Below are positions 33,601 through 49,214 of a stretch of DNA of 64,000 bases, piece after piece. The notes beneath the pieces were generated by a model. The model was given only the letters and a program-made list of their open reading frames with translations, made no database searches and had not been told where the DNA came from. The DNA is from a virus, in IMG/VR virus record IMGVR_UViG_3300042880_000288, positions 1-64,000 of that record; one strand, 5' to 3'. The translations under genes and the position numbers were made by a program. Positions within the stretch are counted from its first letter, which is position 1. The number at the start of each line of letters is the position of its first letter.

Positions 33601-34995
33601 AAGGAAACTAAAGAGAAAGCACGTAAAATTACATTTAAAGAAGCTCAGTTTATTTTAAATACTGTTAGAAAAGTACAAGATGAAATAAGACAACTTGAAG
33701 AGATTAAAAAAGATTTGACTAATCAGATTAATTATTACAATAATCTAAAAACTGATCCATCAATGAGACTTATTAATAAGTCTGAGATTAATCAAAAGAT
33801 TGTTAAGGTTAAACGTAAGATATCTACAATTGAAAAATTAATAAATATCTTAAGAAATGCAATTAGAAAATCATTAGAATATCTTCAAGAGTATTTAAAA
33901 ATCTTTAATAAATATAATACTAAACTTGATAGATTCAGAAAAGATACCGGTTTCCAAGAATTATCAGCTGATGAAATTAGAGCATTGATTGATTCTTTAG
34001 ATCCAAATGATGTATCTACACTAGATAGATATCCTCAACTTAAAAAACAATTTGACACTCTTGTAGATAAAGTTAATAAATCCATGGATGATGTTGAGTT
34101 TACTGATGAAGTCATTCAAGTTGAAAGAGATAGATTAGAAGAATTAGTTGCTGCCCATAAAAAGTATAATGATCAATTAAGATACTTGCAAGAGTTATTA
34201 GAACCAGTTGCTGCTGATGCATTTTATGAAAGTCCTTTGTCTGATAAAAATGCACCTGATGCACCTAAACCAAAAACAGGTGGTACTCCTGCTCAACAAA
34301 GAATTCAAACTAGAATTGAAGAAACTAATAAAGAAATCCAAGATGCTAAAGATGATATGGGTGACACTGTAGGATCATTTAGTCTTAGTGATATAGAAGA
34401 AGCCCCTAGTGGACAACCTGCTGTTAAAACTGAAGGATTTAAAACTCTTTCAGATATGGTAGAAGCTGCTAATGATCTTATTGAATTAAATAAGATCTAT
34501 GATGTAATTACTGACTATACTTTAACAGTAGATGAGTTAGATCAACTATCAGATCTTATTGATCAGAGAACTGAAGCATTACAAACTAATACAGCAACTA
34601 TTACATATAATGAAAATAATATTTCAAAAGGTGATAGATTTATCGTAAAAAATGCTATATTTATTAATAAGGAAATTTTTGCAGAACCAGGAAATTCACT
34701 CTTTATAGAATCTGTTAATGAAAATGGAGTTACAGTATATAAAGTGTTGGGAGGTGAAACAGAAAATCTTACCTTTGAAGAATTAACTAATAATACAACT
34801 CTTGATAACATGTCAAACATCCCACAAGAAGAACCAGTAGTTCTATCTACAGAAGATAAAAATGTAATTAAATCTTCATTAGATGCAGCTAATTCAATTA
34901 CTACAGATGACTTAGATGCAGTTAAAGATTCAATTAAAAATAAATCAATGGATGATTTAGAGAATGATTTATTAGAAACTAATGTTTGTGAATAA
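27652..34995 (+). CDS. Giant ejection protein with PD-(D/E)XK nuclease domain and long coiled coil
   Basis: AGEIDLLIVD...SIVDIKSG...YLLQQTAYANM (D at 32635, DIK at 32677-32685, QQTAY at 32761). Gly/Ala-rich hydrophobic helices near the N-terminus and a heptad-rich region at about 33300-34250. Directly upstream of the vRNAP gene. Confidence 0.75.
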   Translation: MAEDTGIPFNPLDPLGPDVGKVDLPTIDPIGLSPFEGDNINVPTLENYKNVYDIPAVNILPPQSRLVNQAPNVRQLATGTVPGKTPSPVKSSASDRAMAWMAKWKGQNATRNAQPKDSFGRIYSYKDAPNGDAFMERYQAFGQEKFDELGFSPIRNNEALYNDNTTWWQRHSRMMTNSFWPLFFRGFVSGPKSLAKAMTGDFSADPEEADFYERAAAIGQDSTGGFGSFFNNTAMNFGYTAGIITEAIAEEGIALLLAPETGGASVVAATANNMRKLGTVGKTISMSRKLPNFASKGMNLNRASRAQAVARSSAAYGKVLNNSIKGIGGTINGSRGFWNAVRTNNIVKFLNPLDNTIDAIAGVGKNLDNLTGLAKSYQVVNKTAGGLYRDMRALNMALSEARLEGGLVQNSTYEKLYNDYYMKNGETPDDEMQRAMLQQAIDAGQETLLWNVALVYGTNKITFPNIMGPKGGIKNFLRSKTDDILNLDSKVGKMVIRKNKDVVKKGGLKNKYKGEFVEYSFKETLKSFAKDPIRKSAKGALVYLKGNIAEGLQENVQETLSMGLENYYVNKFESNALRAHLFNRAATEYSKDKSEYISEAWKKFNPFTSEGFEIFASGALMGLFASPINQSVEWASIAYNKNFNKEEYNKYIEAKSNYAKGVAATMNRMYSDPQAFFESKIFNYATQDQIFSAKKFGSRKIALDASDEAIVDTVTAFLETGNYDMLKHYIGEYNNMTAEEIEEDLGLEKGLGQKYKDRVNNVLDKANQIEETYNEINKRYPSPINLGDYKKGTDEYKRAAIFNSAWNLAKRNAVFLNSSYKDSLERMSSIVNAVSSDPSLSKTLSARDMEMLTNVSKMKSERDMLKAEIDAVKGSGTASRFDLTGAGKKQKKLDALDEFIKAYDYFQNYEVFDIEEQLDYLEAEGKLKDIKDNDGNALSEKDAREEAKKFLLAKLKVEPKSEEATLQAKTNLETAYKNFLRASANLNEGTYFEEGADKAFELLLDHYKLGRESNIMADYINLLHNPKEFAEHVERNYEWMSRLYENRQDHYDKLVNKQLAHIELNAILNALADRNVFISEEDAINFLRNPRMIPEEFFDNTRKAVIREGHPEYEELRTLFVIASATAIRGVADPTNEDLERNLDFLDEEMQKEIDALPQIEVKRGIKSLDTMGDPFVGIQAVFDQLGNDQYIEVSYLDAAGKEQKQIFYKKDDQLYYDNDKGNKVELDAITAQFLDGDIYTLKLEPKDQEAVKEIKERYAQRRIDYINKMSEKVANTAAEEAQNRFIPFTSATPYEDMDVELRELLAGAYNEYLDDNPELMEKVVDLDDYAYAEERDSFIRTNRIAKEIIDRYNKKKLAEQATTPTGEIEAPVIEINGQMIDFATLTDAQIRNKIRSLTKAADKLSEDIEALPEDKRNKADIERLAKMRFNINLAEKYLANRVKNNRSAKMETVKDIINREILRFQDGITKTSNNSKYVIDDDLYTRVTTAIESLKKDAYNYKNINIVLAEFNKTIGQGKSVDDFIAALKTRLPIGTDGMSKYVYKVLARNLKQVIEPEDPKAKKLSADELKNYLKEQISELTYEESRIGGNYLDAEIRKFLDEGEAQFDETKIDKAAFDAIFGPNSVLAKLKTRQDNGEIKIYANNIKLFDKDSKIAGEIDLLIVDREGAVSIVDIKSGNKDKWSGFHDAANPYSKKETYLLQQTAYANMFYNMTGIMPKVYLLPIEIESDPNVDLDEKTGLPIGGKILTAKYATSPVQLGENLIVLDPNTAYGDETIQEKVDTLIPRKEFVPAEPATTPLQEVSDEEFQDFVDNRNVSQSRLDDITYKISRGIELTERELAISQEFVADINFKLIQLAQQEQENQVGDDAESATGKAVLDEVSKALTESEKETRQRNIDILNRRISILESRALENDKSLGELQDTLGFLQNMLDSSVEIAGLEFEALMNSANSLYELANKLKSAKQVKRGEKIKARAGQYEKETKEKARKITFKEAQFILNTVRKVQDEIRQLEEIKKDLTNQINYYNNLKTDPSMRLINKSEINQKIVKVKRKISTIEKLINILRNAIRKSLEYLQEYLKIFNKYNTKLDRFRKDTGFQELSADEIRALIDSLDPNDVSTLDRYPQLKKQFDTLVDKVNKSMDDVEFTDEVIQVERDRLEELVAAHKKYNDQLRYLQELLEPVAADAFYESPLSDKNAPDAPKPKTGGTPAQQRIQTRIEETNKEIQDAKDDMGDTVGSFSLSDIEEAPSGQPAVKTEGFKTLSDMVEAANDLIELNKIYDVITDYTLTVDELDQLSDLIDQRTEALQTNTATITYNENNISKGDRFIVKNAIFINKEIFAEPGNSLFIESVNENGVTVYKVLGGETENLTFEELTNNTTLDNMSNIPQEEPVVLSTEDKNVIKSSLDAANSITTDDLDAVKDSIKNKSMDDLENDLLETNVCE

Positions 34996-37900
34996 TGAAA
35001 ATTACTTGTGCTCTTAGTAAAGAACATTTACTAAAACTTGCTGCTGTTATATATAAAGATATTGAATCATACCAAGCAGAGAATAAAGCCTATGATGCCA
35101 GAGTTTTAATGAATCAGTTATATGATAAATTAAATAAAGCACAAGGTCAAGAAGTTGCCTTATCTTATATGCAACAGATGCCATTTTTAGTTGGTCAAAT
35201 TGCTTTTAAAGAAAGCACTGAGCTCATTGAAGATTTTGCTATTAATGATCTATTTAAGTTAAATAAAGAATTCAGAAATGAAGATTCTGGAGTTCAATCT
35301 TTATTAAATTTTTTTGGTAAGACAATTGATGCATCTACTCTAAAACTACTTGCAGATGCAGAGTTAAATAATCCTGTTGAGAATGATGGGCCACCAATTG
35401 CTGAAGAACCTCCAATAGAAAAATTTACTGATAAGAGATTAAAAGTTTTAGTTGACAATGCTATATCAACTACCTGGGAAGAGTTTTTAGAAATGGATCC
35501 TAATTTAAAAGTTGATGAAACAATAGAGAATGTAGATCCTGCTAAAACTACTGTATATAATACACTAGATAGACTTAGAAAGTTAACTTCTGGTGGAACT
35601 GCCTTAGATACTATAGTAATGGATGATAACAAGGTTAAACTTAGAGTTTGGTCTCTTAATGCATTTCCTCAAGACTTACTATATCAAAAGACAAAAGATC
35701 TTAAACAAAGAATAAATACATTTCAATCTGGTAAAGCTAAAGATCAAGGTGAAGTAAAACCGGTTACTGAACAATTCATGGTTGTTCTTACAAATGAAAA
35801 AGGTCAGATACTTTATTTTAATGAAGCAGGTGTTGTTACTCCTAAAGAAAATGGAGGTAAACCTGTTTATCAAATGCTAAGAGATGTTAGATTAGAGAAA
35901 GGTGGTGAGTATAGAGTTACAGATATATATGGTAGAGAGGATATGATCCTTGGTTCTGCTCAAACTGCTCAAGCAAGAGTAAAACAAATGGGTTATAAAT
36001 CCATTGATATGTTTGAAAAATCTGAAGGTGTTAAGTTCTCAGATTTTGTAAATCAAATTGAAGAAGAAAGACAAGCAAAGTTTAAAGAGTATTATGATTT
36101 TAGACAGTCCTTAATTGGAATGCCAGCTAATAGACAAATATTTTTACCACTTGTTGATGTAAGTAATGGTGTTAGAAATGGTAGAGTTAGACCAGGAACT
36201 ATGAACATCAATAACTTAAGATCCTTTACTCCTGAACAAGCTGAAGCTATACTACAATCAATTACATTATTAGATACTGATTATATTACTGAAGATAGAA
36301 CACTTAAAGCTAATACATCAGCTGTTCAAATTAATGGAGAAGTATTTGAAGTTGACAGACCAGATATATCAACTGATCTGGCTACAAAAATAGCTAAGGT
36401 GCTTACTTCTAAAGATCTAAGTATTACAAGTAAGTTGGACTTTGTTCAACAGTTTTTAGATAACGCATTAGATGAAGATGTTAGAAGACATTTTATAAAG
36501 TATGATGCTGACCAAAAAAAATTAAGATTTTTATATAGAACATATATAAATGCTCAGTTTAAAGAAATTAAAAAAACAAATCCAAAAGCTGCAAATACAT
36601 GGTTGGAAGTTGATTTAACTGGAGGCCCTGCAGCTGAAGCAAAAATTATTGAAGTTCTTTTGAAAGGTAAAGGAACTTTAAAAAAAGAGAATAATAAAAT
36701 TGTATTGGATAAGAACGGTATTCCTGAAGTGGGAAGATATTATCCAGCTAAAATTAAATACGATAAAGGTTTACTGCAAGACGGTACTTATTTTGATTAT
36801 ATAGAAGATCCAAATAAACCTGGAGAATATATGTTCAGTGTAGGTTCCTATAAAACAGGATTACTTCCAACAATGGATGCTAAAATTGTATTAGGAAAAT
36901 CTAAATCAATTCCTTTGTTTAATAGCTACATGATTTTTGCAATTCCAAATGCATTTTCAGAATCTATTGATCAAATTAAAGATGAGAATGAAATAAAAGG
37001 AGAGCCTTCAGAAATACGTAAGAAGTATAATGAGTTAGTAGATATATTAAAAAATTCTCCTGATCAAAATCCAAGTTTAAAAGCAACAGTTACTGAATTA
37101 GGAAAGATAACACAGACACCTACAGGTAATTATAGAAGTATTGATATTACAATTGAAGGTCAAGAAGGAACTTTTAGATTGTATAGAGTTGTAGATACTA
37201 GTGCTAAAGTTGGAGATGAGATAAGTTTAATACTTAGAGATATTGAAGTACAAGATGGTATGGGATATCCTAATACTATTGTAGGTGTAAGAGATTTTGA
37301 AGGTAGAAGATATGACTTTGGATTCTTACAAGACTCATTCCGTAGTAAAGAATATAATGAACCATCAAGACAACCTGTACCATTAAATACTGAAGCAATA
37401 GAGGAAGCTAAAGAAGAAGAAGAACTTGATGATATAACAGATACACAATCTGAAGTAGGTGAGAGTAAAGATATTCCAATAACTCCTATTGAACCTGGTA
37501 AAGGTAGTATAGGTAGAATACTTGATGAGGATCCGGGGTTTGTTCTTGATAGAAAAACATGGCTGAGTCAATCAGGAATTACTCAAGAGCAATTAAATAA
37601 TGCAAAAGATTGGTGGGAGAATTCATCTTCTGGTAAGCTTTTAAATAAATACATTGAACTCAGTGTAGCAGCAGATTTAGTTAACTCTGATGTATATGCA
37701 AAATTTATTGCTAAAGGAGCATGGCTTTTAGGTTATGCTGATTACAAATTACAGCCAGGTAAACTTGGAGTTATTGCTTTAAATCCCCGTAATGGTGGGA
37801 ACTATGTAGATGTTTATCATGAAGCTTGGCACGTATTTTCTCAGTTATTCATGACTAATGAACAAAGAGTTAAATTATATACAGAGTTTAGAAATTCAGA

Positions 37901-40900
37901 TCCTGCATACAAGGATATGTCCTTCTTTGAAATAGAAGAAAGACTAGCAGAAAACTTTAGAGAGTATGCAAGAAATCCTAAACCTGTTAAAAGTCAACCT
38001 GTTAGAAATACATTATTTAGAAAAATATTAAACTTCCTAAAACAATTATTCGGTAAGGTATCTCCAAAAGATATCATTGATCCAAATATAATGGAAATAG
38101 GAATGGTTAATGAATTGTTTGAAGCTCTTTATTTCAATAATGATAATGTATTAAATAAATTTTCTCCATCCGTAGATAATTTAAAATGGGATGAACTTGA
38201 TAGAGGAGTGGTTGTAAAAACAGAAGAAAAGAATTCTAAGGGTAAAAATATAAAAGTTGAAGTACTGAATGAACAAGATGGTAGAGCTCTTGCAAATACC
38301 ATTGATTCTGTACTATCTGAAATCATTGATGAAAGTTCTAAATTTTATAATAAAAAATCAGGAACTGTAAAAATCTTAACTGATTCCTATAATAAAGGTC
38401 TTGCTTATGATAAGGTTAGAAAGAAGTTCATAGAAGATATTAAACAATGGCAAAAAGAACTTCTTATTAAAGATGCTAAGTTTGATACCTATACCACTTT
38501 AGATCAATTAGATTCAAATGCCTTTGCTGTAATAAGAAGTAAAAAAGGTGATCATAAATATATTTTCTTAAGAGGTCAAGTTGAAAGTTTTAAAAATCTA
38601 ACAGCTGATACTAAACTTGGAGAAAGAGAGAAAGGAAAACTATACAAAGACAATATTGAAATTGTAGCAGATTACTTTGAACATGATTTAATTAAAGATA
38701 GAAAAGGAAGAGGAGCAAGTATAATAATTGTTGATAGTAGACAAGAAGCTGAAGATCAATTTAAAAATTATATTGAAATTGATCCTATTACTAACGAACA
38801 AAAGGCACCTTCAATACAATCAATTAAATTTAATGAAGATAGAGTTGCTGCAAGATTATTTACTCCAGAGCAACAACTTAAATTAGATAACATTAGAATC
38901 TATGAAACAGCACTTAAACACTGGGATTCTATTATTGCTCATCATGAAAATAACTCAACCTTTGATATAATTAAACAAAAATATATCTTACTTGAAGAAG
39001 ACCCAAGTACAAACTCATCATTAGATACTACAAGAGCTAATGAAACTAGGACTGGGGATAAACAAATTGGAGAGTTTACATTACAGGAAATGGCTAATAA
39101 AGAGACTGTATATATATTAAAAAGTCTCTTTAAGAAAGAAAAGAAAGGAACTGGTTATGTTAATGTATATGATAGATTTGGTAATAAACAATTAGCTGAT
39201 TTTAGAACAGTATGGAATGCCGTTGTAAGAGCCACCAATAGTGCAAAAGATCCTCAAAAAATATATGATGCACTTGTAAATGCTGCCAAGTTTTCTCCAG
39301 AACTACAACAGTTAATAGATTATAAGTTGCCTTTACCAAATCAAGTAAATCAATCTTCTTCTGAGTTTGATATTACTACTTCATTCTTTACTGATTTTAG
39401 TAGACCAAAAGTACCATATATTCAATTGTTAGCTTTTGATGATGGTGTAGAATTCTCAACTGAAGTAACAGATGCTGGTATAGATGTAAGTAAAACTTTA
39501 AAGATATTTGAGGCTAAGTTCCGGTCAGATAAAAATGATTCATACATTGAAAAAGATAATAATATATCCAGACTTAATTTAAATGCTGTATTGCAAAATT
39601 TTAGAAATAAAAATAGTGCAAATTTAATTCTTGATGAAGATAAAGCATTTAAGTTTCTTACATCCATTGGATTCTATTTTGATGATCTTACTGCTATTAA
39701 AGATGAATTAAAAGATTTCAATAATAGAAAGTATTATTATATACCAAGAATATTTGAAACAATCAAATTAGTACATGAAGCTAGTTTAGATCCTAACTTA
39801 TCTAAAGAAGGAAGAGAATTAATAAATAAGTTTAGAATGAGTCCATTGAGGGTATTAAGAAGTGGTATACCTGAAAATGTATTGGGTCAGAAAGATTCTT
39901 CTTTATACAAAAATGGGCTTTCACAAAAGACTATTGTTGATAGACTGCTTACATTACAAAGTAAATACGGTAAAACCGGATCTAATTTTAGTGTATTAAA
40001 TCCTGAAAGAAACAGAGTTAATTTACATACTGATGATAACACAGCAACAGTAATAGCTGATGCAATAAATCAAGTAAGTAATAAATCTGATATGTGGACA
40101 AAAACACAGTATAGATTATTAAATTCATTTAACCCTGCAGTTAATGCATTTACTAACAGGTCCCAAATAATGAAAGCTTTATTTGAGCCAAGTAATAAAA
40201 GAAGAACTGACAGATTTTTAGAAATTATTATGGTGGCTGGTACACAGCTTACATTAAATGATGTATTTTTATCAGGAACATCAACTACAAGTTTAGATGG
40301 CCAGGGTAAATTCTTACAAGATTTTCATACATTTCTTAAGTCAGGTTATTTAGAGTTTTTAAGACCAGGTTCTAAATCCTCTTCATTTGGATTCATCTTA
40401 CGTGGAGGTTTCCCTATTGATGTAAAAGGTATGGGTAAGAATAAAGAACAACATCTATATGCAGATATAGATGACTTCCTTACTGCAAACAATAAAGAGA
40501 CTGAAGTAATTGAAAGAATTATCCTACCATATCTTGCAGGTGAACTTGAAAGAATAAATAAATTCAAAGAAAACCCAAAAGCAAAAAATTATATAGGGTA
40601 TAATCAAAAAGTCACTGACTCAGGTAAGAGAGCTGGAGAAGAGTATGCAATATTTGAAGGTATACTTGATGATAAAACTAAATCAGACTTATTAGAAAAA
40701 ATAAACAACTCTGGTATAGATTTAATAAACTATCTTAAAAATGATCCTGATTTAAAATCTAGTTTGATTAAACAAATCAAAGGTTATTTTACTACTAGAA
40801 GTACTGATGTTTATAACAGATTAAATGAAGGTAAATATGTAGATCCTAAACTATATAATAAAGTACCTGGTGATTTGACTAAGTCAGAAAAAGAAAAAGT

Positions 40901-43900
40901 TCTTGCAAAGACTTTCATGTATAATTATTGGATTCATAGTGTTGAGACTCAGATATTATTCTTAGGTGACATATCTCAATATAATCATCTTAAAGAAGAA
41001 TTACATAAGAGAACTTCTGGTTTGATTTCAAATGGTCCAAGATTTAGGACTGATACTGCTGCTCAATTATTTATAAATAATAAAGCTTTATGGGCAAAAA
41101 GTACTTATGCATCTACTTTACCTGCTGAGTATCAAAACTTTGAATACAATGGTACATTTAATACCGCCATCATGGAGGATATTACTAGAGATAGTGAATA
41201 CTTAGATATAATTAAAAAAGGTCTTGAAAAAGATTATGCAAAAAGATATGCTTTACTTCCAACAGCAGAAGCTAAAAAACTTATAGAAGAAAGAGTAGCA
41301 AAAGAAATTGCTAAATATACGGCAGATGAAATCAAAGAAGGTGATGGTCAAGGTTATATTACTGTTGATGCATATAGAACATTAAAAAAATTACAAAACC
41401 GTTGGTCAGATCAGCAAGAAGTTCTATATCAAAAAGTAATTAAAGGAAGTGAGATTACACCAGCAGAATATATTGAACTTTTTCCTCCATATAAATTACA
41501 ATACTTTGGTCCATTAGTAGCACAAACAAAAGATTTTGCTAATGGTACAGTTTTACCAGTTACAGCTTTCCATAAGTTTGCCTTGGTACCTTTAATTCCA
41601 TCATGGGTAAAGGGTTCTGATCTTGAAGTATTGCATAAAGAAATGCTAAGGAATAACATTCAATATGCAACATTTGGTAGTGGATCTAAGGTAGGTGCAG
41701 TAACATCTGATGGTGAATTAGATAAAATTTATGAGCCCGGTTCAGATAATAAAAAATTAAAAAGTAAAATAAACTTTACTAAAAATACTATTAATGTTGA
41801 GTACTTAAAAGAAGTAACCAGTGTACCTAGTAAATTAAAAGGTAAAGTTATATTCTCAACTCAGTTAAGAAAATTAATTCTTGAAGGATTATTTATTAAA
41901 GGAGAACTTGTAAATGGTGCTAACAAAGATATAGTAGAAGGATACACTTCATTGGTTGACTCTTATACTAAATTATTAAAAGAAGAATTATTAACTGAAA
42001 TTGGTTATACAAAAGAGAATGGAGTATATGTTGGTAAGCCTGCTAAATTATTAAAATTAATCAAAGACAATTTAGCTAAAAAAGATTACCCAAGTCACCT
42101 TCTTGATGCATTAAAAACAAATCCTGATGGTTCACTTAAGTATGACTTATCAAATTTTATTGATGCTCAAACTATAGAAAGAACTGTATTATCAATTGCT
42201 GAAAATAGATTTGTTAAACAAAAACTAAAAGGAGAAGCTTTAGTTCAAGTAGCAAGTTCCATGACAAATGGTTTATGGACTGCAGGAAATAAATTTAAAG
42301 CAGGATCTAAGGAAGATGTATTAAAGTATATGGGTACTAATAATCTACCTTTCTATTATCCTGGTGAGGATGGTAAAACAAATGCAATGAAAGTTGCTAT
42401 TGCTTTACAAGGAGACTTCTTCAATTTATTAAACTTAAATGACTTAGATGGTCAACCAATTAAGACAAGAGAAAGACTTAATGAACTGATCAAACAAGAT
42501 GAATGGTTAAATAAAGATAACAACCGTAAAGCTATTACCATGACTGCTGTTAGGATTCCTGTACAAGGACTTAACTCTATGGAGTTTATGGAAGTTTGGG
42601 AGTTCTTGGATCCTTCTGCAAGTAATATTATTATTCCTCCTACAGAACTAGTAGCAAAATCAGGGGGTGATTATGACGTTGATAAGCTTACTACATTCAT
42701 GCCTAACATAGATAAAGATGGTAATGTTTATACTTCAGATAAAAATGCAAAAGCTTTACTTGATTCTATTAATGAAGCAGACAGTAAAGATAAAATGGCC
42801 TTAATCAAGCAAGCTAAAAAAGTAATGGAAAATGACTTGATCACTAGTATCAGATCTATTCTTGAATTACCAGAAAATTATGCAACTCTTGTAAGACCAA
42901 ATGATACTTACATGCTTAAAGATATTGCTGATGAATTAGCTGATGTTGTAGTTGATTATGATAAATTCCAAACAGTAAATAGAAAATTCAAAGAATATAG
43001 AATTGTAAAAGGTAAAAAAGCAATTAGTCCTACTACTACATTAGAACCTTTATATAATATTGATAAGTTTAATGGTAACATGATTGGTAAAGCAGTACTT
43101 GGTATTGGTGCCAATGAGAATGCTTTTAGTCCTTTATTAAATTCTATTGGTGCTAAAATGCCATTGACTTATCAGGAAAGTGAATTTGATCCAAAAATCA
43201 ATAAGTATAAAGATATAAAGGATGGTGAAACTTATAGAACAAGATTACTATTACGTCATAATAAAAATGCTGATGGTACAATTTCATTAGCAGATGTAAA
43301 CTCTGTTGATGCTGTAAATAAAATAGCTGACTTGTTTTCACAAGGTATGAATGGATGGGTTGACGTTGAAAAAGATCAGTGGATCTTTTATATTCAAGGT
43401 AACTTAGAAATATCTCCTGTATTACTGTATTTATTAAAAGCTGGTGTACCTGTGAGAGATGCTGTTATGTTTGTGTCTACTCCTCTTATTAGAGAGTATG
43501 CAAATAAACAAAGACTATTGAAAAGTCCATATGCAACTCTAATGGGTATTGCACCTACTGAACCTCAGTTTGCTCAATATAATGCAGCTAATGAAGTATT
43601 AAGTCCTGCTATAGATGCTTACTTGAAAAGAACTATTGATAAAGCTGTATTCTCAGGTTATAGTTTTGATACTGCATCAATAGCTTACTATGGTTTAGGT
43701 CCTAATGGTAGAAAACAATTAATGACTCAAGAGTTCAAAGGAACTGATGATCAAGTGATTAAAGATCAAATTAATGACTTCTTACAATATGTTGATTCAA
43801 ATGATGTCATGAGAATCAATTTTTATCAGCAAGCAGATAGAAGACAAAATAATAAAGTATACAGTAAACCAAGAGTTTCAAATAAAGAAATTTACAATTC

Positions 43901-46900
43901 AGCTGTACAATTAAGTGATAATAATTTAGATAGCTTTGGTAATTTTGATAAAGCTAAAATTGAACAATTAGTTAAGTCTAAAAATGATACTGATAAATAT
44001 TCTGATTTTTCAATGGCTGCATTCTTGCATTTTATTGAGATTGAAAAATATTTAAAGGGTCTAGGTAATGTAAAAAGATTATCTAAACCAGATACTCAAA
44101 CATTTAAAACTATACAAGAGGTTTTATTAAGAGATCTAAATATTGCATACTTAAATGATTACAGTAAAGTTGATAAAACTACTTTTGATAGATTAAGAAA
44201 TGACAGCATTCTTGCTGCTCTTGCAGATAAAGATATAATAACTCAAGTAATAAGTCCATTGTTTTCATTAAGAAATAGCAAGCAAGTATTAGATCAGATT
44301 GTTTCTACTATCAATACTAAAACAGAAGCTCTCAAAGAAAGATATGGTGGTCTTGGAGCAGACAACATTAGTAGGTTTATTGAAGAGTATAAAAATGCCA
44401 TCAATACATTTATACTACAAAACTTCTTAAGTAACAATATAAACTCTAATGGAGAGATTGTTTTAGTGCCGGATACTTACAAAGGTTTTGAAGTTGTTAC
44501 TAATGAAAATCTTGAAACAGATGTTGAAGTAACTGAGAAGGATGGTAAGAAACTTATTAGAGTTAATCCAAAAAGAATTGAAGCTGACTTTAAAAATAAA
44601 AACTACTTAGTAACCAGTAGCTCTAACAACTCTTACAAGTCAAGAGGCCTTGAAGCATTCCAAGTTGGTGATGATGTATTTGAATCTAAGTCAAGTTACT
44701 ATAGATATGTTATAGAAAGAGAGTATTTAAAAAATAAAGGATTTACTAAAGAAGAACTTAACAGTATTGCTTTATTGAATACTTATAATCCATCTGTAAT
44801 ATTGAGAAGAGGTACATATTCTTTTACAGATCAGTTATTAGAATCTATTCAACAGTTTCCAGAACTTTCTAAATATCCTGTAGTAAACCAATTAAGTTTA
44901 TATGCTTTTTCTAATGAATTTAATGTATTAACTTTAAATGATAAAGGTTTACTTGATGGTGCTCAAGCTGATATATATGCTCAGAATATTAGAGAACTAG
45001 CTAATCCAAAAATCCAAAAGATTGCAAACACTAAGGATAATGAAAAAATAAGTAGATTATTTTACATGCTTCAATTAATGGCAACTTACCAACATGGTTC
45101 AGGTCCTTCAATTGATGGCTTTAATGAAATACTACCTCAAGATTCATACTTAAGTGTTATGAATAATGCTAGTCCTTTATTCACTAAATACTATTTTAAT
45201 GAAGATACTCTTGAATATATTGTTGATGTTCTTACAGCAGATAAATTAAGAATTAAGAACTATACAAGCATGCCAACAAGTAATAATACATTTGTTATTG
45301 AGGCTAAAGCTGAAGGTGCTCAACCATCTATTAAACCAACAACTCCTACTTTAACTGTAAATGATCCTAAAGATTTTACAAATCATTCGGGTGGTGCTGC
45401 TTTATCTGATACTGAATGGGATCAAATAGGTAGAGAGTTTGGGGTAACTAATCATAAACATTATAGAGAGCCTTTAGATTATGTAGATACAAAAGGTGAA
45501 GCTGCTAAAGGAAGTAAAACATTAGATTCTAAAAAATTACAAGCAGCTGGTATTGAACCTACTCATATTAGTCAAAAAGACTATAATGAAGGTGCACAAA
45601 AAGCTACAAAAGCTTTTAGAATGATGTATACTGATTCTGAAAATAAATCAGTAAGAAGTGCCTATATTATTCGTAACTGGTTACAAGTTAAAAATGCTGA
45701 TGCCATATTTGCATTAGGTACTATAAAACAACCTGGTGAAAATGCATCTGATAAAGCTGGTGAAACAAGAATAGCTGCTGTCCCTATTGTTAAAGGTGGT
45801 ACAGGATATGCTGTTCAAATGGCTATTAATGAAGGTAAACCTGTTTATGTATTTGATGGTACTAAAGAAGGATGGTATAAGTATGATTATTCAATTAAAA
45901 ATTTTGTAAAAACTGATACACCAACTCTTACTAAAAACTTTGCAGGTATAGGAAGTAGAACACTAAGTACAAAAGAAGTAATAGACAAATCATTACAAGC
46001 CATCAGAGATGTATATACTCAAACATTTGGGGCTAAACAAAAATCAGATGGTACAACAGTTAAATACAAGTACTATGGTGCTATGTATGATATTGTTGTA
46101 GAGAATGGACTTGGTATAGATGTATTAAACTATAAAGGGAAACCGGCTAAAAAAGCAATTTTATTAGCTTACTTTAATCAAAATCCAAATATAGATCCTC
46201 AAAGTACTGGACCTGATCCAATAGTTTTAAGTGATGAAGAAATAAATAATGATGATACAGGTAACTCAGATCCAACAACAGGTAATACATTTACTTTTGC
46301 TGATGGTTATGAGATTGAAACTCCTTTTAAATTAAACAAAGAACAAGAGGCAGCTCTGTTAAAACTTGAAGAATTCTATAATGATCCTAAAAAATTCAAT
46401 AATGAAATTACATTGATTGGATATGCAGGAACTGGTAAAACTTCAATCATGGCTCTCTTTGATAAATGGTTGAATAAAGGATGGTTTGGACCTAATATAG
46501 TATATACTGCACCAACTCATAGAGCAAATGCTGTTACTAAACTTAAGAATCCTAAAATTAAAGTATTAACTCTCCATTCCTTATTTGGATTTGGTCCTGA
46601 AGTAGACTTTGAAGGAATGGATTATGACGTAAGAGATTTACAATTTGCTAATAATAGAAATGGAAAAATTGATAAAGGTCAAATACTTATTGTAGATGAA
46701 TCTTCTATGATTACTGATGAATTATATGATTTCTTAGGTCAGCAAAAAGATAAGTATGATCTTAAAGTTATATACATGGGTGATCCAGGACAGTTAGGTC
46801 CTGTGCAAAATAAAGGAGGCTTGACATCAAAAGTATTTTCTAATCCCACATCTAGTATTACTTTAACTAAAGTAGAAAGAACAGGAGATAATCCTATACT

Positions 46901-49214
46901 AAAAGAATCAACTGCACTAAGATCTGGAGGTTCTTTATCATATCAGTCTGCAGAAATTAATGGAAAAGGTGTTGAATATATAAATAGTACAGCTAGAGAA
47001 AATCAAATACTTGCTGAAAATCTTAATGAAATGAGAGACTCAGAAAACTATTTGTATTTTAGAATGTTAGCTGCAACAAATCCTGAAGTAGCTAGATTAA
47101 ATAAAGTAGCGAGAGAAATATTATATCCTCAAACCTATCAAGAACAATTAGTAGTTGGTGAAATTCTTATGGGGTATGATAATTTTGGTAGAGATTATAA
47201 AACAGGCCAGTCTTTATTATATAACTCTGGAGATTATATGATTACTCAACTTAAGAAAGATAATAAAGAAGTCTATATAACTAATTATGAAAAACAAGGA
47301 GACAAATTTGTAAATATCGGTTTTGAAGAATTGAATTTTACTGGATACAATGTAACTCTTAAAAATCTATTGGATCCAGAAGCAAAACCATTTGAAGTCT
47401 TTATACCAGATATTGTAGGTAATGATGATGCATCTACTAAACTTGCAGATTCTATTCATAAGTTAAACTATATGGGTAAGATTGCTGGTTATGGACAAGA
47501 TAAAGCTAAATATTTTGAAGCAGCTTCTAATTTATCTAAACAAGTATTATTTATGAATGACGTAAAAGGTTTAACTGATAAGTCTAAAATTAAAAAAGCA
47601 ATAGACTATGGTTATGCTCATACAATTCATAAATCTCAAGGTGGTACTTATACTAAAGTATTTATAAATGATCCTAGTATAACAGGATTAGTAGGATATA
47701 TTAAAGATAGAAGAAGACTTACCGATGATCAAGCACAAACTGTTGAAAGACAATTAAAGTATGTTGCTGTATCAAGAGCTACTGACTATGTATATATTTC
47801 AACTAATAGAAGTGCTGCAGGAAAACCTACTAGTTTTGATGATCCGGCCTCTGGAGATTTTGATACTGTAGGAACATTTAATATCAATGATTTAAATCCA
47901 CCATCTAATCCACCAATATCAGGAGAAAGAAAACCTATTGAACCAATAAATGCTCAAGAAATTGAAGATGGTTTAATCTTACAAAAAGGTGTTCTTACTA
48001 AAGAAGAACAAAAACAATTCTTTCAATTTGGTAAAACAGTTCTAGAAAAGAATGGTTATAATCCTTTTGCACAATATGTTATGGCCTCTGCTGGTAAAAT
48101 GGAATGGAGTCCTGAATTTGTAGTTGATAAAAATGGAAAAGGTGTAGATAGACCAGGAAATTATAATACTGGAATCATTCAAATTAAGAAAAACCTAGGA
48201 GGAAGAGACAGTAAAGAAAAAAGATGGAATTATAATTACTACCTCACTAATTTTGATGGTACTACTATAGCTCCAATACCAAATAATATTATAAGTATAC
48301 TAGAAAAAGTTACAGGTCAAGATATGTCTGACTATGATACAGTTCTAATTAACTTATATCCATTAGGTAGAACACTTGGTTGGCATCAAGATATAACTGA
48401 AGATTATAGAAACATGGATAGAGATATTATATCTGTATCTATTGGAGCAGATGCTGATTTTACTTACAATAAAAGAGATAAATTAAGTTATGCTCCTGCA
48501 GCAGATAGTATTCCTGATGGTGTTGTTAATTTAAAGAGTGGGGATGTTATGAGTTTTGGTGGTAAATCTAGACTTGTTCAACATACTGTAACTAATGTAA
48601 CAGGTCAGACAGATTTAGGAACCATAAATCTTGCTAACTCTAATGTAAATAAATATTTTAATGGTGGTTTAAATTTATCTAACTGGAGAATGAACTTTAC
48701 ATTTAGAGTAGCTGATTCTAAAAATAATAATGGTAAAAGAGGATTAGTTTCTACAGTAATTCCAGGTATTAAAAAGTTTGAAGGACAAATGACCTATGCT
48801 TATGGTCAAAATAAAAGAGCTGGTGTAATAGCTAATACAACATTTGATGCCATATTAACGGGTGAAAGAACAGCTACTACAAGATATGAAACTTCAGATA
48901 ATATTGAATACTGGAAAAAAGCCAAAGTTGGAGATATTATTACATGGAAATCTGATGATGGCCGTACTGTAGATGTAGAAGTAACAAGACCACTACATAA
49001 ATTAGTGGGGTCAGGTAAAACACCAACTGATTGGAGCCAACTTGAAGGCTGGTCAATATCTTATTTTAATGAAAAGGTTAGACCTAAACTTGATAAAGCT
49101 TGGCAAATTGAGTTTAAATTACCTGCACCGCCTGCTGCTGAAACAGAAATTAATGATAACTTTATTGATCCTTTTGAAGATGATCAAGAAAATAATTGTG
49201 CATATCCTTTTTAA
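34995..49214 (+). CDS. Virion-packaged DNA-dependent RNA polymerase polyprotein (crAss-like, phi14:2 gp66 type) with zincin, SLOG, SF1B helicase, AlkB and ASCH domains
   Basis: RIPVQG (42552) and GGDYDVDKL (DYDVD 42669-42683) match the DFDID-type double-psi-beta-barrel catalytic motif; also DGQG at 41343. Further motifs: HEAWH 37818, GYAGTGKT 46419, IVDESSM about 46690, HKSQG about 47630, YVAVSRA about 47760, HQD 48384/H 48582/RMNFTFR 48687, GERTATTR about 48860. Confidence 0.85.
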   Translation: MKITCALSKEHLLKLAAVIYKDIESYQAENKAYDARVLMNQLYDKLNKAQGQEVALSYMQQMPFLVGQIAFKESTELIEDFAINDLFKLNKEFRNEDSGVQSLLNFFGKTIDASTLKLLADAELNNPVENDGPPIAEEPPIEKFTDKRLKVLVDNAISTTWEEFLEMDPNLKVDETIENVDPAKTTVYNTLDRLRKLTSGGTALDTIVMDDNKVKLRVWSLNAFPQDLLYQKTKDLKQRINTFQSGKAKDQGEVKPVTEQFMVVLTNEKGQILYFNEAGVVTPKENGGKPVYQMLRDVRLEKGGEYRVTDIYGREDMILGSAQTAQARVKQMGYKSIDMFEKSEGVKFSDFVNQIEEERQAKFKEYYDFRQSLIGMPANRQIFLPLVDVSNGVRNGRVRPGTMNINNLRSFTPEQAEAILQSITLLDTDYITEDRTLKANTSAVQINGEVFEVDRPDISTDLATKIAKVLTSKDLSITSKLDFVQQFLDNALDEDVRRHFIKYDADQKKLRFLYRTYINAQFKEIKKTNPKAANTWLEVDLTGGPAAEAKIIEVLLKGKGTLKKENNKIVLDKNGIPEVGRYYPAKIKYDKGLLQDGTYFDYIEDPNKPGEYMFSVGSYKTGLLPTMDAKIVLGKSKSIPLFNSYMIFAIPNAFSESIDQIKDENEIKGEPSEIRKKYNELVDILKNSPDQNPSLKATVTELGKITQTPTGNYRSIDITIEGQEGTFRLYRVVDTSAKVGDEISLILRDIEVQDGMGYPNTIVGVRDFEGRRYDFGFLQDSFRSKEYNEPSRQPVPLNTEAIEEAKEEEELDDITDTQSEVGESKDIPITPIEPGKGSIGRILDEDPGFVLDRKTWLSQSGITQEQLNNAKDWWENSSSGKLLNKYIELSVAADLVNSDVYAKFIAKGAWLLGYADYKLQPGKLGVIALNPRNGGNYVDVYHEAWHVFSQLFMTNEQRVKLYTEFRNSDPAYKDMSFFEIEERLAENFREYARNPKPVKSQPVRNTLFRKILNFLKQLFGKVSPKDIIDPNIMEIGMVNELFEALYFNNDNVLNKFSPSVDNLKWDELDRGVVVKTEEKNSKGKNIKVEVLNEQDGRALANTIDSVLSEIIDESSKFYNKKSGTVKILTDSYNKGLAYDKVRKKFIEDIKQWQKELLIKDAKFDTYTTLDQLDSNAFAVIRSKKGDHKYIFLRGQVESFKNLTADTKLGEREKGKLYKDNIEIVADYFEHDLIKDRKGRGASIIIVDSRQEAEDQFKNYIEIDPITNEQKAPSIQSIKFNEDRVAARLFTPEQQLKLDNIRIYETALKHWDSIIAHHENNSTFDIIKQKYILLEEDPSTNSSLDTTRANETRTGDKQIGEFTLQEMANKETVYILKSLFKKEKKGTGYVNVYDRFGNKQLADFRTVWNAVVRATNSAKDPQKIYDALVNAAKFSPELQQLIDYKLPLPNQVNQSSSEFDITTSFFTDFSRPKVPYIQLLAFDDGVEFSTEVTDAGIDVSKTLKIFEAKFRSDKNDSYIEKDNNISRLNLNAVLQNFRNKNSANLILDEDKAFKFLTSIGFYFDDLTAIKDELKDFNNRKYYYIPRIFETIKLVHEASLDPNLSKEGRELINKFRMSPLRVLRSGIPENVLGQKDSSLYKNGLSQKTIVDRLLTLQSKYGKTGSNFSVLNPERNRVNLHTDDNTATVIADAINQVSNKSDMWTKTQYRLLNSFNPAVNAFTNRSQIMKALFEPSNKRRTDRFLEIIMVAGTQLTLNDVFLSGTSTTSLDGQGKFLQDFHTFLKSGYLEFLRPGSKSSSFGFILRGGFPIDVKGMGKNKEQHLYADIDDFLTANNKETEVIERIILPYLAGELERINKFKENPKAKNYIGYNQKVTDSGKRAGEEYAIFEGILDDKTKSDLLEKINNSGIDLINYLKNDPDLKSSLIKQIKGYFTTRSTDVYNRLNEGKYVDPKLYNKVPGDLTKSEKEKVLAKTFMYNYWIHSVETQILFLGDISQYNHLKEELHKRTSGLISNGPRFRTDTAAQLFINNKALWAKSTYASTLPAEYQNFEYNGTFNTAIMEDITRDSEYLDIIKKGLEKDYAKRYALLPTAEAKKLIEERVAKEIAKYTADEIKEGDGQGYITVDAYRTLKKLQNRWSDQQEVLYQKVIKGSEITPAEYIELFPPYKLQYFGPLVAQTKDFANGTVLPVTAFHKFALVPLIPSWVKGSDLEVLHKEMLRNNIQYATFGSGSKVGAVTSDGELDKIYEPGSDNKKLKSKINFTKNTINVEYLKEVTSVPSKLKGKVIFSTQLRKLILEGLFIKGELVNGANKDIVEGYTSLVDSYTKLLKEELLTEIGYTKENGVYVGKPAKLLKLIKDNLAKKDYPSHLLDALKTNPDGSLKYDLSNFIDAQTIERTVLSIAENRFVKQKLKGEALVQVASSMTNGLWTAGNKFKAGSKEDVLKYMGTNNLPFYYPGEDGKTNAMKVAIALQGDFFNLLNLNDLDGQPIKTRERLNELIKQDEWLNKDNNRKAITMTAVRIPVQGLNSMEFMEVWEFLDPSASNIIIPPTELVAKSGGDYDVDKLTTFMPNIDKDGNVYTSDKNAKALLDSINEADSKDKMALIKQAKKVMENDLITSIRSILELPENYATLVRPNDTYMLKDIADELADVVVDYDKFQTVNRKFKEYRIVKGKKAISPTTTLEPLYNIDKFNGNMIGKAVLGIGANENAFSPLLNSIGAKMPLTYQESEFDPKINKYKDIKDGETYRTRLLLRHNKNADGTISLADVNSVDAVNKIADLFSQGMNGWVDVEKDQWIFYIQGNLEISPVLLYLLKAGVPVRDAVMFVSTPLIREYANKQRLLKSPYATLMGIAPTEPQFAQYNAANEVLSPAIDAYLKRTIDKAVFSGYSFDTASIAYYGLGPNGRKQLMTQEFKGTDDQVIKDQINDFLQYVDSNDVMRINFYQQADRRQNNKVYSKPRVSNKEIYNSAVQLSDNNLDSFGNFDKAKIEQLVKSKNDTDKYSDFSMAAFLHFIEIEKYLKGLGNVKRLSKPDTQTFKTIQEVLLRDLNIAYLNDYSKVDKTTFDRLRNDSILAALADKDIITQVISPLFSLRNSKQVLDQIVSTINTKTEALKERYGGLGADNISRFIEEYKNAINTFILQNFLSNNINSNGEIVLVPDTYKGFEVVTNENLETDVEVTEKDGKKLIRVNPKRIEADFKNKNYLVTSSSNNSYKSRGLEAFQVGDDVFESKSSYYRYVIEREYLKNKGFTKEELNSIALLNTYNPSVILRRGTYSFTDQLLESIQQFPELSKYPVVNQLSLYAFSNEFNVLTLNDKGLLDGAQADIYAQNIRELANPKIQKIANTKDNEKISRLFYMLQLMATYQHGSGPSIDGFNEILPQDSYLSVMNNASPLFTKYYFNEDTLEYIVDVLTADKLRIKNYTSMPTSNNTFVIEAKAEGAQPSIKPTTPTLTVNDPKDFTNHSGGAALSDTEWDQIGREFGVTNHKHYREPLDYVDTKGEAAKGSKTLDSKKLQAAGIEPTHISQKDYNEGAQKATKAFRMMYTDSENKSVRSAYIIRNWLQVKNADAIFALGTIKQPGENASDKAGETRIAAVPIVKGGTGYAVQMAINEGKPVYVFDGTKEGWYKYDYSIKNFVKTDTPTLTKNFAGIGSRTLSTKEVIDKSLQAIRDVYTQTFGAKQKSDGTTVKYKYYGAMYDIVVENGLGIDVLNYKGKPAKKAILLAYFNQNPNIDPQSTGPDPIVLSDEEINNDDTGNSDPTTGNTFTFADGYEIETPFKLNKEQEAALLKLEEFYNDPKKFNNEITLIGYAGTGKTSIMALFDKWLNKGWFGPNIVYTAPTHRANAVTKLKNPKIKVLTLHSLFGFGPEVDFEGMDYDVRDLQFANNRNGKIDKGQILIVDESSMITDELYDFLGQQKDKYDLKVIYMGDPGQLGPVQNKGGLTSKVFSNPTSSITLTKVERTGDNPILKESTALRSGGSLSYQSAEINGKGVEYINSTARENQILAENLNEMRDSENYLYFRMLAATNPEVARLNKVAREILYPQTYQEQLVVGEILMGYDNFGRDYKTGQSLLYNSGDYMITQLKKDNKEVYITNYEKQGDKFVNIGFEELNFTGYNVTLKNLLDPEAKPFEVFIPDIVGNDDASTKLADSIHKLNYMGKIAGYGQDKAKYFEAASNLSKQVLFMNDVKGLTDKSKIKKAIDYGYAHTIHKSQGGTYTKVFINDPSITGLVGYIKDRRRLTDDQAQTVERQLKYVAVSRATDYVYISTNRSAAGKPTSFDDPASGDFDTVGTFNINDLNPPSNPPISGERKPIEPINAQEIEDGLILQKGVLTKEEQKQFFQFGKTVLEKNGYNPFAQYVMASAGKMEWSPEFVVDKNGKGVDRPGNYNTGIIQIKKNLGGRDSKEKRWNYNYYLTNFDGTTIAPIPNNIISILEKVTGQDMSDYDTVLINLYPLGRTLGWHQDITEDYRNMDRDIISVSIGADADFTYNKRDKLSYAPAADSIPDGVVNLKSGDVMSFGGKSRLVQHTVTNVTGQTDLGTINLANSNVNKYFNGGLNLSNWRMNFTFRVADSKNNNGKRGLVSTVIPGIKKFEGQMTYAYGQNKRAGVIANTTFDAILTGERTATTRYETSDNIEYWKKAKVGDIITWKSDDGRTVDVEVTRPLHKLVGSGKTPTDWSQLEGWSISYFNEKVRPKLDKAWQIEFKLPAPPAAETEINDNFIDPFEDDQENNCAYPF
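37600..38060 (+). other. Zincin-like metallopeptidase domain within vRNAP polyprotein
   Basis: VYHEAWHVFSQLF followed by EERLAENFREY and LFRKILNFLKQLF, an HExxH...E pattern. Boundaries approximate. Confidence 0.7.
45375..46032 (+). other. SLOG (DprA/Smf/YpsA-like) domain within vRNAP polyprotein
   Basis: HSGGA..SD, RNWLQVKNADAIFALG, KGGTGYAVQMAINEGKPVYVFD and NFAGIGSR give the Gly-rich GGA/GGT Rossmannoid loops of the SLOG superfamily. Boundaries approximate. Confidence 0.6.
46326..47810 (+). other. RecD/Dda-like superfamily 1B helicase domain within vRNAP polyprotein
   Basis: Q motif LNKEQEAAL, Walker A GYAGTGKT, Ia APTHRA, II IVDESSM, III GDPGQLGPV, IV LTKVER, V YAHTIHKSQG, VI YVAVSRA, all in the canonical order. 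Confidence 0.9.
47964..48710 (+). other. AlkB-family 2OG-Fe(II) dioxygenase domain within vRNAP polyprotein
   Basis: LINLY....LGWHQD, IISVSIGADADF, LKSGDVMSFGGKSRLVQHTV and RMNFTFR supply HxD...H iron ligands and the RxxxxxR 2OG-binding motif. Confidence 0.85.
48774..49120 (+). other. ASCH (PUA-like) domain at the C-terminus of vRNAP polyprotein
   Basis: FDAILTGERTATTR...KVGDIITW...VDVEV...LEGW...WQIEF follows the ASCH pattern (GxKxxxxR, here GxR). Confidence 0.65.

Follow-up and report, generated by a model that had tools for sequence, protein, structure and literature searches.

AlkB-family and ASCH-like modules carried on a crAss-type virion RNA polymerase: a candidate base de-modification pair

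The 64,000-nucleotide stretch of viral DNA analysed here (the window; positions 1 to 64,000 of IMG/VR record IMGVR_UViG_3300042880_000288) encodes, at 47964-49120, two adjacent modules related to the AlkB dioxygenases and to the ASCH proteins. The region lies in frame, without a stop or frameshift, inside a single open reading frame (ORF) on the plus strand (34995..49214), which encodes a crAss-type virion RNA polymerase (RNAP) of 4739 amino acids (aa) with accessory modules on the N- and C-terminal sides of its core. The features of this protein described below are all on that strand. An AlkB-family Fe(II)/2-oxoglutarate (2OG) dioxygenase module occupies aa 4326-4574 (47970..48716; bounds from the hidden Markov model, HMM). 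It is followed by a 21-aa linker of low model confidence, SKNNNGKRGLVSTVIPGIKKF (48717..48779), by a predicted YqfB-type ASCH-fold module with a GxRxxTxR octapeptide and the residues R4625, T4628, R4630, W4680, and E4684 (aa 4596-4708, 48780..49118), and by an acidic C-terminal tail ending in NNCAYPF (49119..49211). The source virus record is 120.7 kb and is rated complete. The DNA of the window is present in lake-water and freshwater metagenomes, and the closest annotated relatives of the phage are Crassvirales; when 20 kb of the window was compared with phage records by megablast, no match was obtained.

The polymerase core of the giant protein (aa 1974-2840, 40914..43514) was recognised by BLASTP and tblastn matches to gp66 of Cellulophaga phage phi14:2. 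BLASTP returned three collinear segments (E 2e-13, 8e-8, and 1e-5), in which the sequence GGDYDVDK aligns to the catalytic GSDFDIDK of gp66 with its DxDxD motif; the corresponding DYDVD is found at aa 2559-2563 (42669-42683). N-terminal of the AlkB module lies a Dda/RecD-like superfamily 1 (SF1) helicase (aa 3774-4269, 46314..47801), which is matched by Pfam AAA_30 (E 6e-21) and UvrD_C_2 and by PHROG 325, a Dda-like helicase (E 3e-72), and which has a Walker A motif GYAGTGKT at aa 3809 and a Walker B-type DESSM at aa 3901. The gp66 protein is the characterised crAss-type virion RNAP, packaged and translocated together with the DNA (PMC7886860; bioRxiv 10.1101/2020.03.07.982082), and the phi14:2 record notes proteomics. 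By homology to gp66, the giant protein is probably a virion component that is delivered into the cell along with the DNA.

The AlkB module scores well above the Pfam cut-off for 2OG-FeII_Oxy_2 (PF13532; 78.3 bits against 31.2, E 1.1e-21). Its match in PHROGs is annotated as "alkylated DNA repair", and its sequence matches in the Protein Data Bank (PDB) are rice ALKBH1, ALKBH1, AlkB, and ALKBH2. In comparison with E. coli AlkB the residues N120/Y122, H131-x-D133, D135, H187, and R204-x-N-x-T-x-R210 are kept. In the numbering of the giant protein, H4464 and D4466 correspond to H131 and D133, H4530 to H187, and R4565-M-N-F-T-F-R4571 to R204..R210. When the phage relatives of the module are aligned with E. 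coli AlkB, the iron ligands, the 2OG-binding residues, and the D135 equivalent are invariant. In AlkB, D135 recognises the exocyclic amine of 1-methyladenine (1mA) and 3-methylcytosine (3mC). An AlphaFold model of aa 4324-4739 has a mean predicted local distance difference test (pLDDT) score of 77, with higher values in the domains and values below 50 at model residues 256-271, which form the linker; the predicted TM-score (pTM) is 0.59. In a Foldseek search of this model against the PDB, the best 21 matches are all E. coli AlkB, with E values down to 7e-12 and TM-scores on the target of 0.70-0.80. The structure-based identity to E. coli AlkB is about 19%, and insertions are present at three places, among them the lid region. 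Residues and model together identify an AlkB-family dioxygenase with intact active-site residues, for which base dealkylation is predicted. A search for stand-alone AlkB relatives of comparable length found just six proteins, all encoded on contigs of 0.9-8.9 kb; they are probably pieces of giant proteins.

The kinship of the second module to ASCH proteins is visible only at the level of the fold and in a short pairwise BLASTP alignment. The Pfam ASCH profile (PF04266) remained below threshold for the module (15.5 bits against 21.2, E 0.03), and sub-threshold matches to it were obtained in 11 of 28 family members (best E 0.008). A profile of the family searched against PDB sequences found no ASCH protein, with chance matches only (E >0.3), and NCBIfam had no match for the module. 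On the other hand, a model of the module built from a 28-sequence alignment (pLDDT 88.7) has YqfB as its top Foldseek match (E 6e-4, probability 1.0, 26% identity), with probability 1.0 also for EF3133 and a Lactobacillus crispatus ASCH protein. The VIA-align comparison likewise ranks YqfB first (Z 10.0, root-mean-square deviation 3.1 Å, 96 of 102 residues). Ranks 2-7 are all ASCH proteins at Z 7.9-8.8, and EVE, YTH, and other PUA-like domains reach Z 6.3 at most. Pairwise BLASTP with YqfB covers the octapeptide region (E 3e-4), aligning GERTATTR with GRKTITIR. Judged by its model, the module has the PUA-like beta-barrel fold of ASCH proteins and is closest to YqfB. The assignments made in the initial annotation, an AlkB domain next to an ASCH domain on an RNAP-helicase, are thus upheld, the second of them on the basis of two structural aligners and below the Pfam ASCH cut-off.

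Residue n of the ASCH-like module is residue 4575+n of the giant protein. By MAFFT alignment, T53 (T4628) corresponds to YqfB T24, R55 (R4630) to R26, Y56 to D27, W105 (W4680) to H70, and E109 (E4684) to E74. Both BLASTP and MAFFT place R50 (R4625) on K21, so that the replacement of the ASCH Lys by Arg, already remarked on in the initial annotation, is confirmed. The octapeptide GERTATTR has the form GxRxxTxR and does not match the canonical GxKxxExR or GxKxxTxR. An exhaustive HMMER search yielded 278 representatives of the family at 50% identity, and conservation was counted over 244 distinct ASCH-like domain copies. Position R50 is Arg in 221 of 226 copies and Lys in 4; the other counts are 218/226 for T53, 225/226 for T54, 223/226 for R55, 225/228 for D72, 227/232 for W105, 229/231 for E109, and 225 each for G110 and W111. 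The near-invariant positions fall on the active site of YqfB (R50 98%, T53 96%, R55 99%, W105 98%, E109 99%). Aromatic residues invariant specifically in this family are Y28, Y64, W65, W105, and W111. Relatives of only 25-32% identity on contigs of metagenome-assembled genomes retain PMxF, GxR(T/Q/K)AT(T/S)R, and WSxxEGW.

In YqfB, K21, T24, R26, and E74 have been proposed to act as base, nucleophile, oxyanion hole, and acid; activity is abolished in the variants K21A, T24A, and R26A, and E74A works 100-1000 times more slowly (PMC6972931). In one study, each of the 19 ASCH proteins assayed proved to be an N4-acetylcytidine (ac4C) deacetylase, and the catalytic Lys was also essential in TthASCH, EOLA1, and TRIP4 (bioRxiv 10.64898/2026.02.27.708502). 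Judged from the alignments, the conserved positions of the phage family coincide with the homologous active-site pocket, with Arg in the place of the base, and the exchange of Lys for Arg is family-wide, not a local decay. Such a pocket would fit a re-tooled hydrolase and a base-reading pocket about equally well.

Several side observations concern the same module. The Met at aa 4599 (48789-48791; M24 of the module) lies in the first strand; 218 of 220 copies retain it, as do, within PMxF, the distant relatives. Several database proteins begin exactly at M24, probably through gene-calling on fragments, and many of the short family members may likewise be incomplete pieces. An internal start at this Met was considered and rejected; a conserved Pro/Gly precedes it, and it is part of the first strand in distant relatives too. 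Of the distant GxRxxTxR members (25-34% identity), one is part of an Aenigmatarchaeota chromosomal ORF of 1424 aa (locus L015, 5599-9873), and another is encoded by a stand-alone gene of 124 aa on a Lentisphaeria contig of 322 kb (locus L020, 5914-6288). Either may represent a cellular home of the family. The neighbours of the Lentisphaeria gene (URO-D, alpha-amylase, and phosphodiesterase) are cellular-looking and uninformative.

Both modules recur beyond the window. AlkB modules of 60-75% identity and ASCH-like modules of 50-72% identity are found across over 100 giant proteins with lengths of 2.6-6.6 thousand aa, at varying positions, and the RNAP cores of these proteins are far more divergent than the modules. 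Both modules have sharp ends: the ASCH-like module runs from EGxMT, directly after a Phe, to AWQIEFK, directly before a Leu, and the AlkB module from GLxL, directly after a Pro, to NFTFRVAD, with Pro/Thr/Gln-rich linkers between modules. Module counts were made by iterative HMM searches over 251 collected proteins. Among the 164 giant proteins with an ASCH-like module, 144 have an RNAP core, 49 a SLOG-like module, 36 a helicase, and 24 an AlkB module; the ASCH-like module is C-terminal of the RNAP core in 96 and N-terminal of it in 44. The SLOG-like module, which co-travels with the ASCH-like module, is also present in 25 of the 39 AlkB-bearing giants. In the flanks of the ASCH-like module, NADAR, DUF7831, and RNase H are also frequent, and the ART-PolyVal domain PF18760 was found on sister giant proteins.

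Where AlkB and ASCH-like modules occur together, they are usually neighbours. A gap of at most 61 aa separates them in 20 of the 26 proteins with both, with AlkB first in 11 and the ASCH-like module first in 9, and the per-protein chance of such adjacency under free placement is 0.01-0.11. The same limit holds for all seven AlkB carriers among the long representatives that were found by the ASCH-like query alone, a set unbiased for AlkB. The pairs include two AlkB clades, with 60-75% and 27-30% identity to the AlkB module of the window, and in three of the six non-adjacent pairs a SLOG-like module is the only module detected between AlkB and the ASCH-like module. The pair-bearing proteins are mutually related, so these counts overstate independence; at least three distinct juxtapositions are represented. 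AlkB and ASCH-like modules are mobile cassettes, each independent of the other, with a preference for neighbouring positions. Among RefSeq Crassvirales genomes, tblastn detected the ASCH-like module in just two, cr272_1 and cr114_1, and the AlkB module in neither of these. In these two gut or faecal phages the module (L001 8001-8372 and L002 8001-8231, respectively) is unannotated and lies near the C-terminus of "hypothetical proteins" of 6386 and 4272 aa.

The interpretation that we favour, with a little better than even confidence, is that the two modules, each folding on its own, form a polymerase-tethered de-modification pair acting in cis on exposed single strands early in infection. The giant RNAP protein would be packaged and enter the cell with the DNA as gp66 does, and its Dda-like helicase and RNAP would expose single-stranded template and nascent RNA. 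On these strands the tethered AlkB module would remove N-alkyl lesions of the 1mA and 3mC type in cis by Fe(II)/2OG-dependent oxidation. The ASCH-like module would supply a second base de-modifying activity on the same strand, most likely as a hydrolase that removes an exocyclic N-acyl group or a related adduct through a Thr-Arg-Glu pocket derived from the Thr-Lys-Glu triad of YqfB, or else as a reader of bases modified in this way. Along with the SLOG-like module of this phage and the NADAR, RNase H, and ART modules of sister phages, the pair would belong to an exchangeable kit for the first minutes of infection. Such a kit would clear blocking base adducts from the earliest transcribed DNA and RNA, be they the result of chemical damage or of host defence. 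The other neighbours of the ASCH-like module (NADAR, RNase H, SLOG-like) support such a kit, since they are themselves domains of nucleic-acid de-modification or repair.

Several results weigh against this interpretation. The general-base Lys that is essential in all tested ASCH enzymes is Arg here, and of the seven invariant residues of YqfB only T24, R26, and E74 are retained, with K21 replaced by Arg, D27 by Tyr, and H70 by Trp, and Y89 unaligned. The AlkB module scores below the equivalog cut-offs for E. coli AlkB (TIGR00568/NF011930; 45 against 231 bits and 43 against 267) and is not an orthologue of that enzyme, and because it lies so far below them the substrate range of E. coli AlkB is not transferable to it. 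The seven unbiased AlkB carriers mentioned above come from 98 representatives, and the ASCH-like module is missing from 15 of the 39 AlkB-bearing giants, so that neither module needs the other in cis. Finally, 1mA and 3mC arise mainly in single strands, which makes damage to packaged duplex DNA a weak rationale for carrying the pair.

The strongest competitor takes the ASCH-like module as non-enzymatic, a PUA-type reader of a flipped, possibly modified base or a plain handle for single-stranded DNA or RNA, which presents the substrate to the neighbouring enzyme, AlkB here and NADAR or SLOG-like modules elsewhere, much as the ASCH domain of TRIP4 holds the DNA leaving ASCC3. We consider this a substantial possibility, though one that falls somewhat short of an even chance. 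Arg in place of the catalytic Lys in 98% of copies speaks for it, given that substitutions of this Lys inactivate YqfB, TthASCH, EOLA1, and TRIP4, as does the variety of the enzymatic neighbours. YTH and EVE readers have aromatic cages, and the invariant aromatics Y28, Y64, W65, W105, and W111 resemble these. In addition, the ASCH domain of TRIP4 raises DNA affinity and stimulates the helicase (PMC10076317), and ASCH domains have been predicted to be readers of modified bases (PMC4738411). However, a pure binder would need no nucleophile Thr, oxyanion Arg, or acid Glu, and the equivalents of T24, R26, and E74 are 96-99% invariant, with conservation reaching down to 25% identity. The four natural copies with Lys further show that Lys and Arg are interchangeable in the pocket. 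The proposal of the initial annotation that the ASCH domain may only bind nucleic acid therefore stands in part: it agrees with the loss of the Lys, but near-invariance of the three other catalytic residues keeps it from being the sole reading, and a hydrolase is about equally likely.

Action of the modules on host RNA is unlikely. In that case AlkB would erase 1-methyladenosine, 1-methylguanosine, and 3-methylcytidine, and the ASCH-like module ac4C, from tRNA or rRNA, thereby disturbing or re-tuning translation at takeover. AlkB-family enzymes do demethylate RNA, including those in viral replicases (PMC2553587). Yet the covalent tether to a polymerase that, by analogy to N4 and gp66 biology, would be present in few copies favours action in cis, and bulk demodification of host RNA or tRNA by a tethered, low-copy protein is improbable. 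The Lys required for ac4C hydrolysis is absent, and neighbouring modules such as the Dda-type helicase, the DprA-like SLOG module, and NADAR act on DNA.

Only slight credence is given to a two-step eraser of N6-methyladenine and N4-methylcytosine on the incoming phage DNA, in which AlkB would produce hydroxymethyl and formyl derivatives and the GxRxxTxR module, as a new base hydrolase and an Arg-based variant of the Thr-Lys-Glu amidohydrolase YqfB, would work in series with it and remove the N-formyl amide; the purpose would be to evade methylation-dependent restriction or to unmask modified DNA for transcription. The recurrent side-by-side placement in both orders does suggest coupled chemistry, YqfB accepts many N4-acyl (deoxy)cytidines, and Aravind's group has suggested that the AlkB genes found sporadically in phages serve to reset methyl marks and not to repair damage (PMC7824862). 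If the scheme were true, the series would constitute an injected two-step eraser of marks of the restriction-modification type or of a base adduct installed by the host. Against it stand the retained D135 equivalent for 1mA and 3mC recognition, the absence of AlkB next to most ASCH-like modules, the low number of tethered copies, which would be unlikely to scan 120 kb in time, a set of tested YqfB substrates that did not include N-formyl, and the lack of any match to the DNA methyltransferase families PF01555, PF02086, and PF00145 in the complete 120.7-kb genome. This last result also leaves the unmasking of modified phage DNA, as entertained in the initial annotation, without support.

The tethered de-modification pair that we prefer can be compared with several known systems. 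The polyvalent proteins, which occur in phages and conjugative elements (Iyer et al. 2017, PMC5512222), include N4-type virion RNAPs fused to a zincin peptidase and effector domains, and are predicted to enter the host with the DNA. Like them, the window protein unites a virion RNAP with an HExxH motif and several mutually unrelated enzymatic modules in a single giant polypeptide, and among its relatives RNAP, helicase, SLOG-like, AlkB, and ASCH-like modules occur in many permutations. It differs in its RNAP core, which is of the two-barrel crAss/gp66 type and not of the N4 single-subunit type, and the terms AlkB, ASCH, PUA, and SLOG have no occurrence in the polyvalent-protein paper (PMC5512222). 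With gp66 of phi14:2 (PMC7886860; bioRxiv 10.1101/2020.03.07.982082) the protein shares the collinear core, the DxDxD motif, and two flanking giant genes, but gp66 has 2180 aa without these add-ons, whereas in the window protein the core is extended by about 1900 residues on each side. The comparative study of crAss-like phages describes the transcription block as encoding "large, multidomain proteins" and does not describe repair or dioxygenase domains (PMC7886860). Sporadic AlkB genes have been noted in jumbo phages (PMC7824862), and nothing relevant was found in the literature on crAss-like phages or Crassvirales with AlkB, ASCH, or NADAR. AlkB and ASCH cassettes on a crAss-type virion RNAP are thus a variation on the polyvalent-protein theme for which no published description was found.

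At the level of the single modules, E. coli AlkB has the same fold and the complete set of iron and 2OG residues. An AlkB domain joined to a helicase and a polymerase within a single polyprotein is also known from the replicases of plant RNA viruses of the Flexiviridae (PMC2553587, PMC544882), the difference being that the carrier here is the virion RNAP of a DNA phage and not the replicase of an RNA virus. E. coli YqfB, an ac4C amidohydrolase of the GxKxxTxR ASCH subgroup (PMC6972931; PDB ID: 9KYF), aligns with the phage module at the octapeptide, T24, R26, E74, G36-D37, and the C-terminal IEFK strand; unlike YqfB, the phage module has an additional N-terminal strand, in which the near-invariant Met lies, and an inserted YW. 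A similar combination, of a helicase that produces single strands, an AlkB dealkylase that acts on them, and an ASCH domain in contact with the strand as it exits, is seen in human ASCC3 with ALKBH3 or TRIP4 (PMC10076317). In contrast to the single phage chain, these are separate proteins, with ALKBH3 and TRIP4 binding ASCC3 in a mutually exclusive manner (PMC10076317), and ASCC3 is a Ski2-like superfamily 2 helicase, not a Dda-like SF1 helicase, so that common descent is not implied.

If the preferred interpretation holds, crAss-type phages would inject not a bare polymerase but a polymerase with exchangeable repair or de-modification enzymes, which would point to base-level damage or base-modifying host defences as a leading threat during the first minutes of infection. 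The family also offers a large, well-sampled natural set of ASCH proteins with Arg in place of a supposedly essential Lys, a test case for enzyme, reader, or both. A phage protein that joins helicase, AlkB, and ASCH could further serve as a simple single-chain model for human ASCC3/ALKBH3/TRIP4.

The remaining features of the giant protein lie N-terminal of the helicase or at the termini. A SLOG/DprA-like module with an HSGGAALSD motif (aa 3456-3631, 45360..45887) is suggested by this motif and by an ESM Atlas feature score of 0.90 to clusters carrying DNA_processg_A/LDcluster4/YpsA; its identity comes from these two leads, as the segment had no Pfam match and no sequence match in the PDB. A zincin-like HEAWH (HExxH) motif is found at aa 942-946 (37818..37832), with no Pfam match, and the surrounding region, aa 887-1010, is kept in 65 of the 164 related giant proteins. 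Possibly the motif corresponds to the MPTase found in polyvalent proteins, and the giant protein might then be cleaved into its modules. The N-terminal 800 aa gave no Pfam match. The RNAP gene is flanked by ORFs of 2447 aa (27652-34995) and 1934 aa (49224-55028), in the same order as gp67-gp66-gp65 of phi14:2, and the 2447-aa upstream ORF has a weak match to an exonuclease-family PHROG at its aa 1641-1722.

The acidic tail holds one of the only two cysteine residues of the 4739-aa protein, which are located at aa 5 (35007) and aa 4735 (49197). Among 152 related giant RNAP proteins, a Cys lies within the last 10 aa in 140 and within the first 10 aa in 103; the overall Cys frequency of 0.13% would give an expectation of 1.3% per 10-mer. 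The Cys tail is retained regardless of which module comes last.

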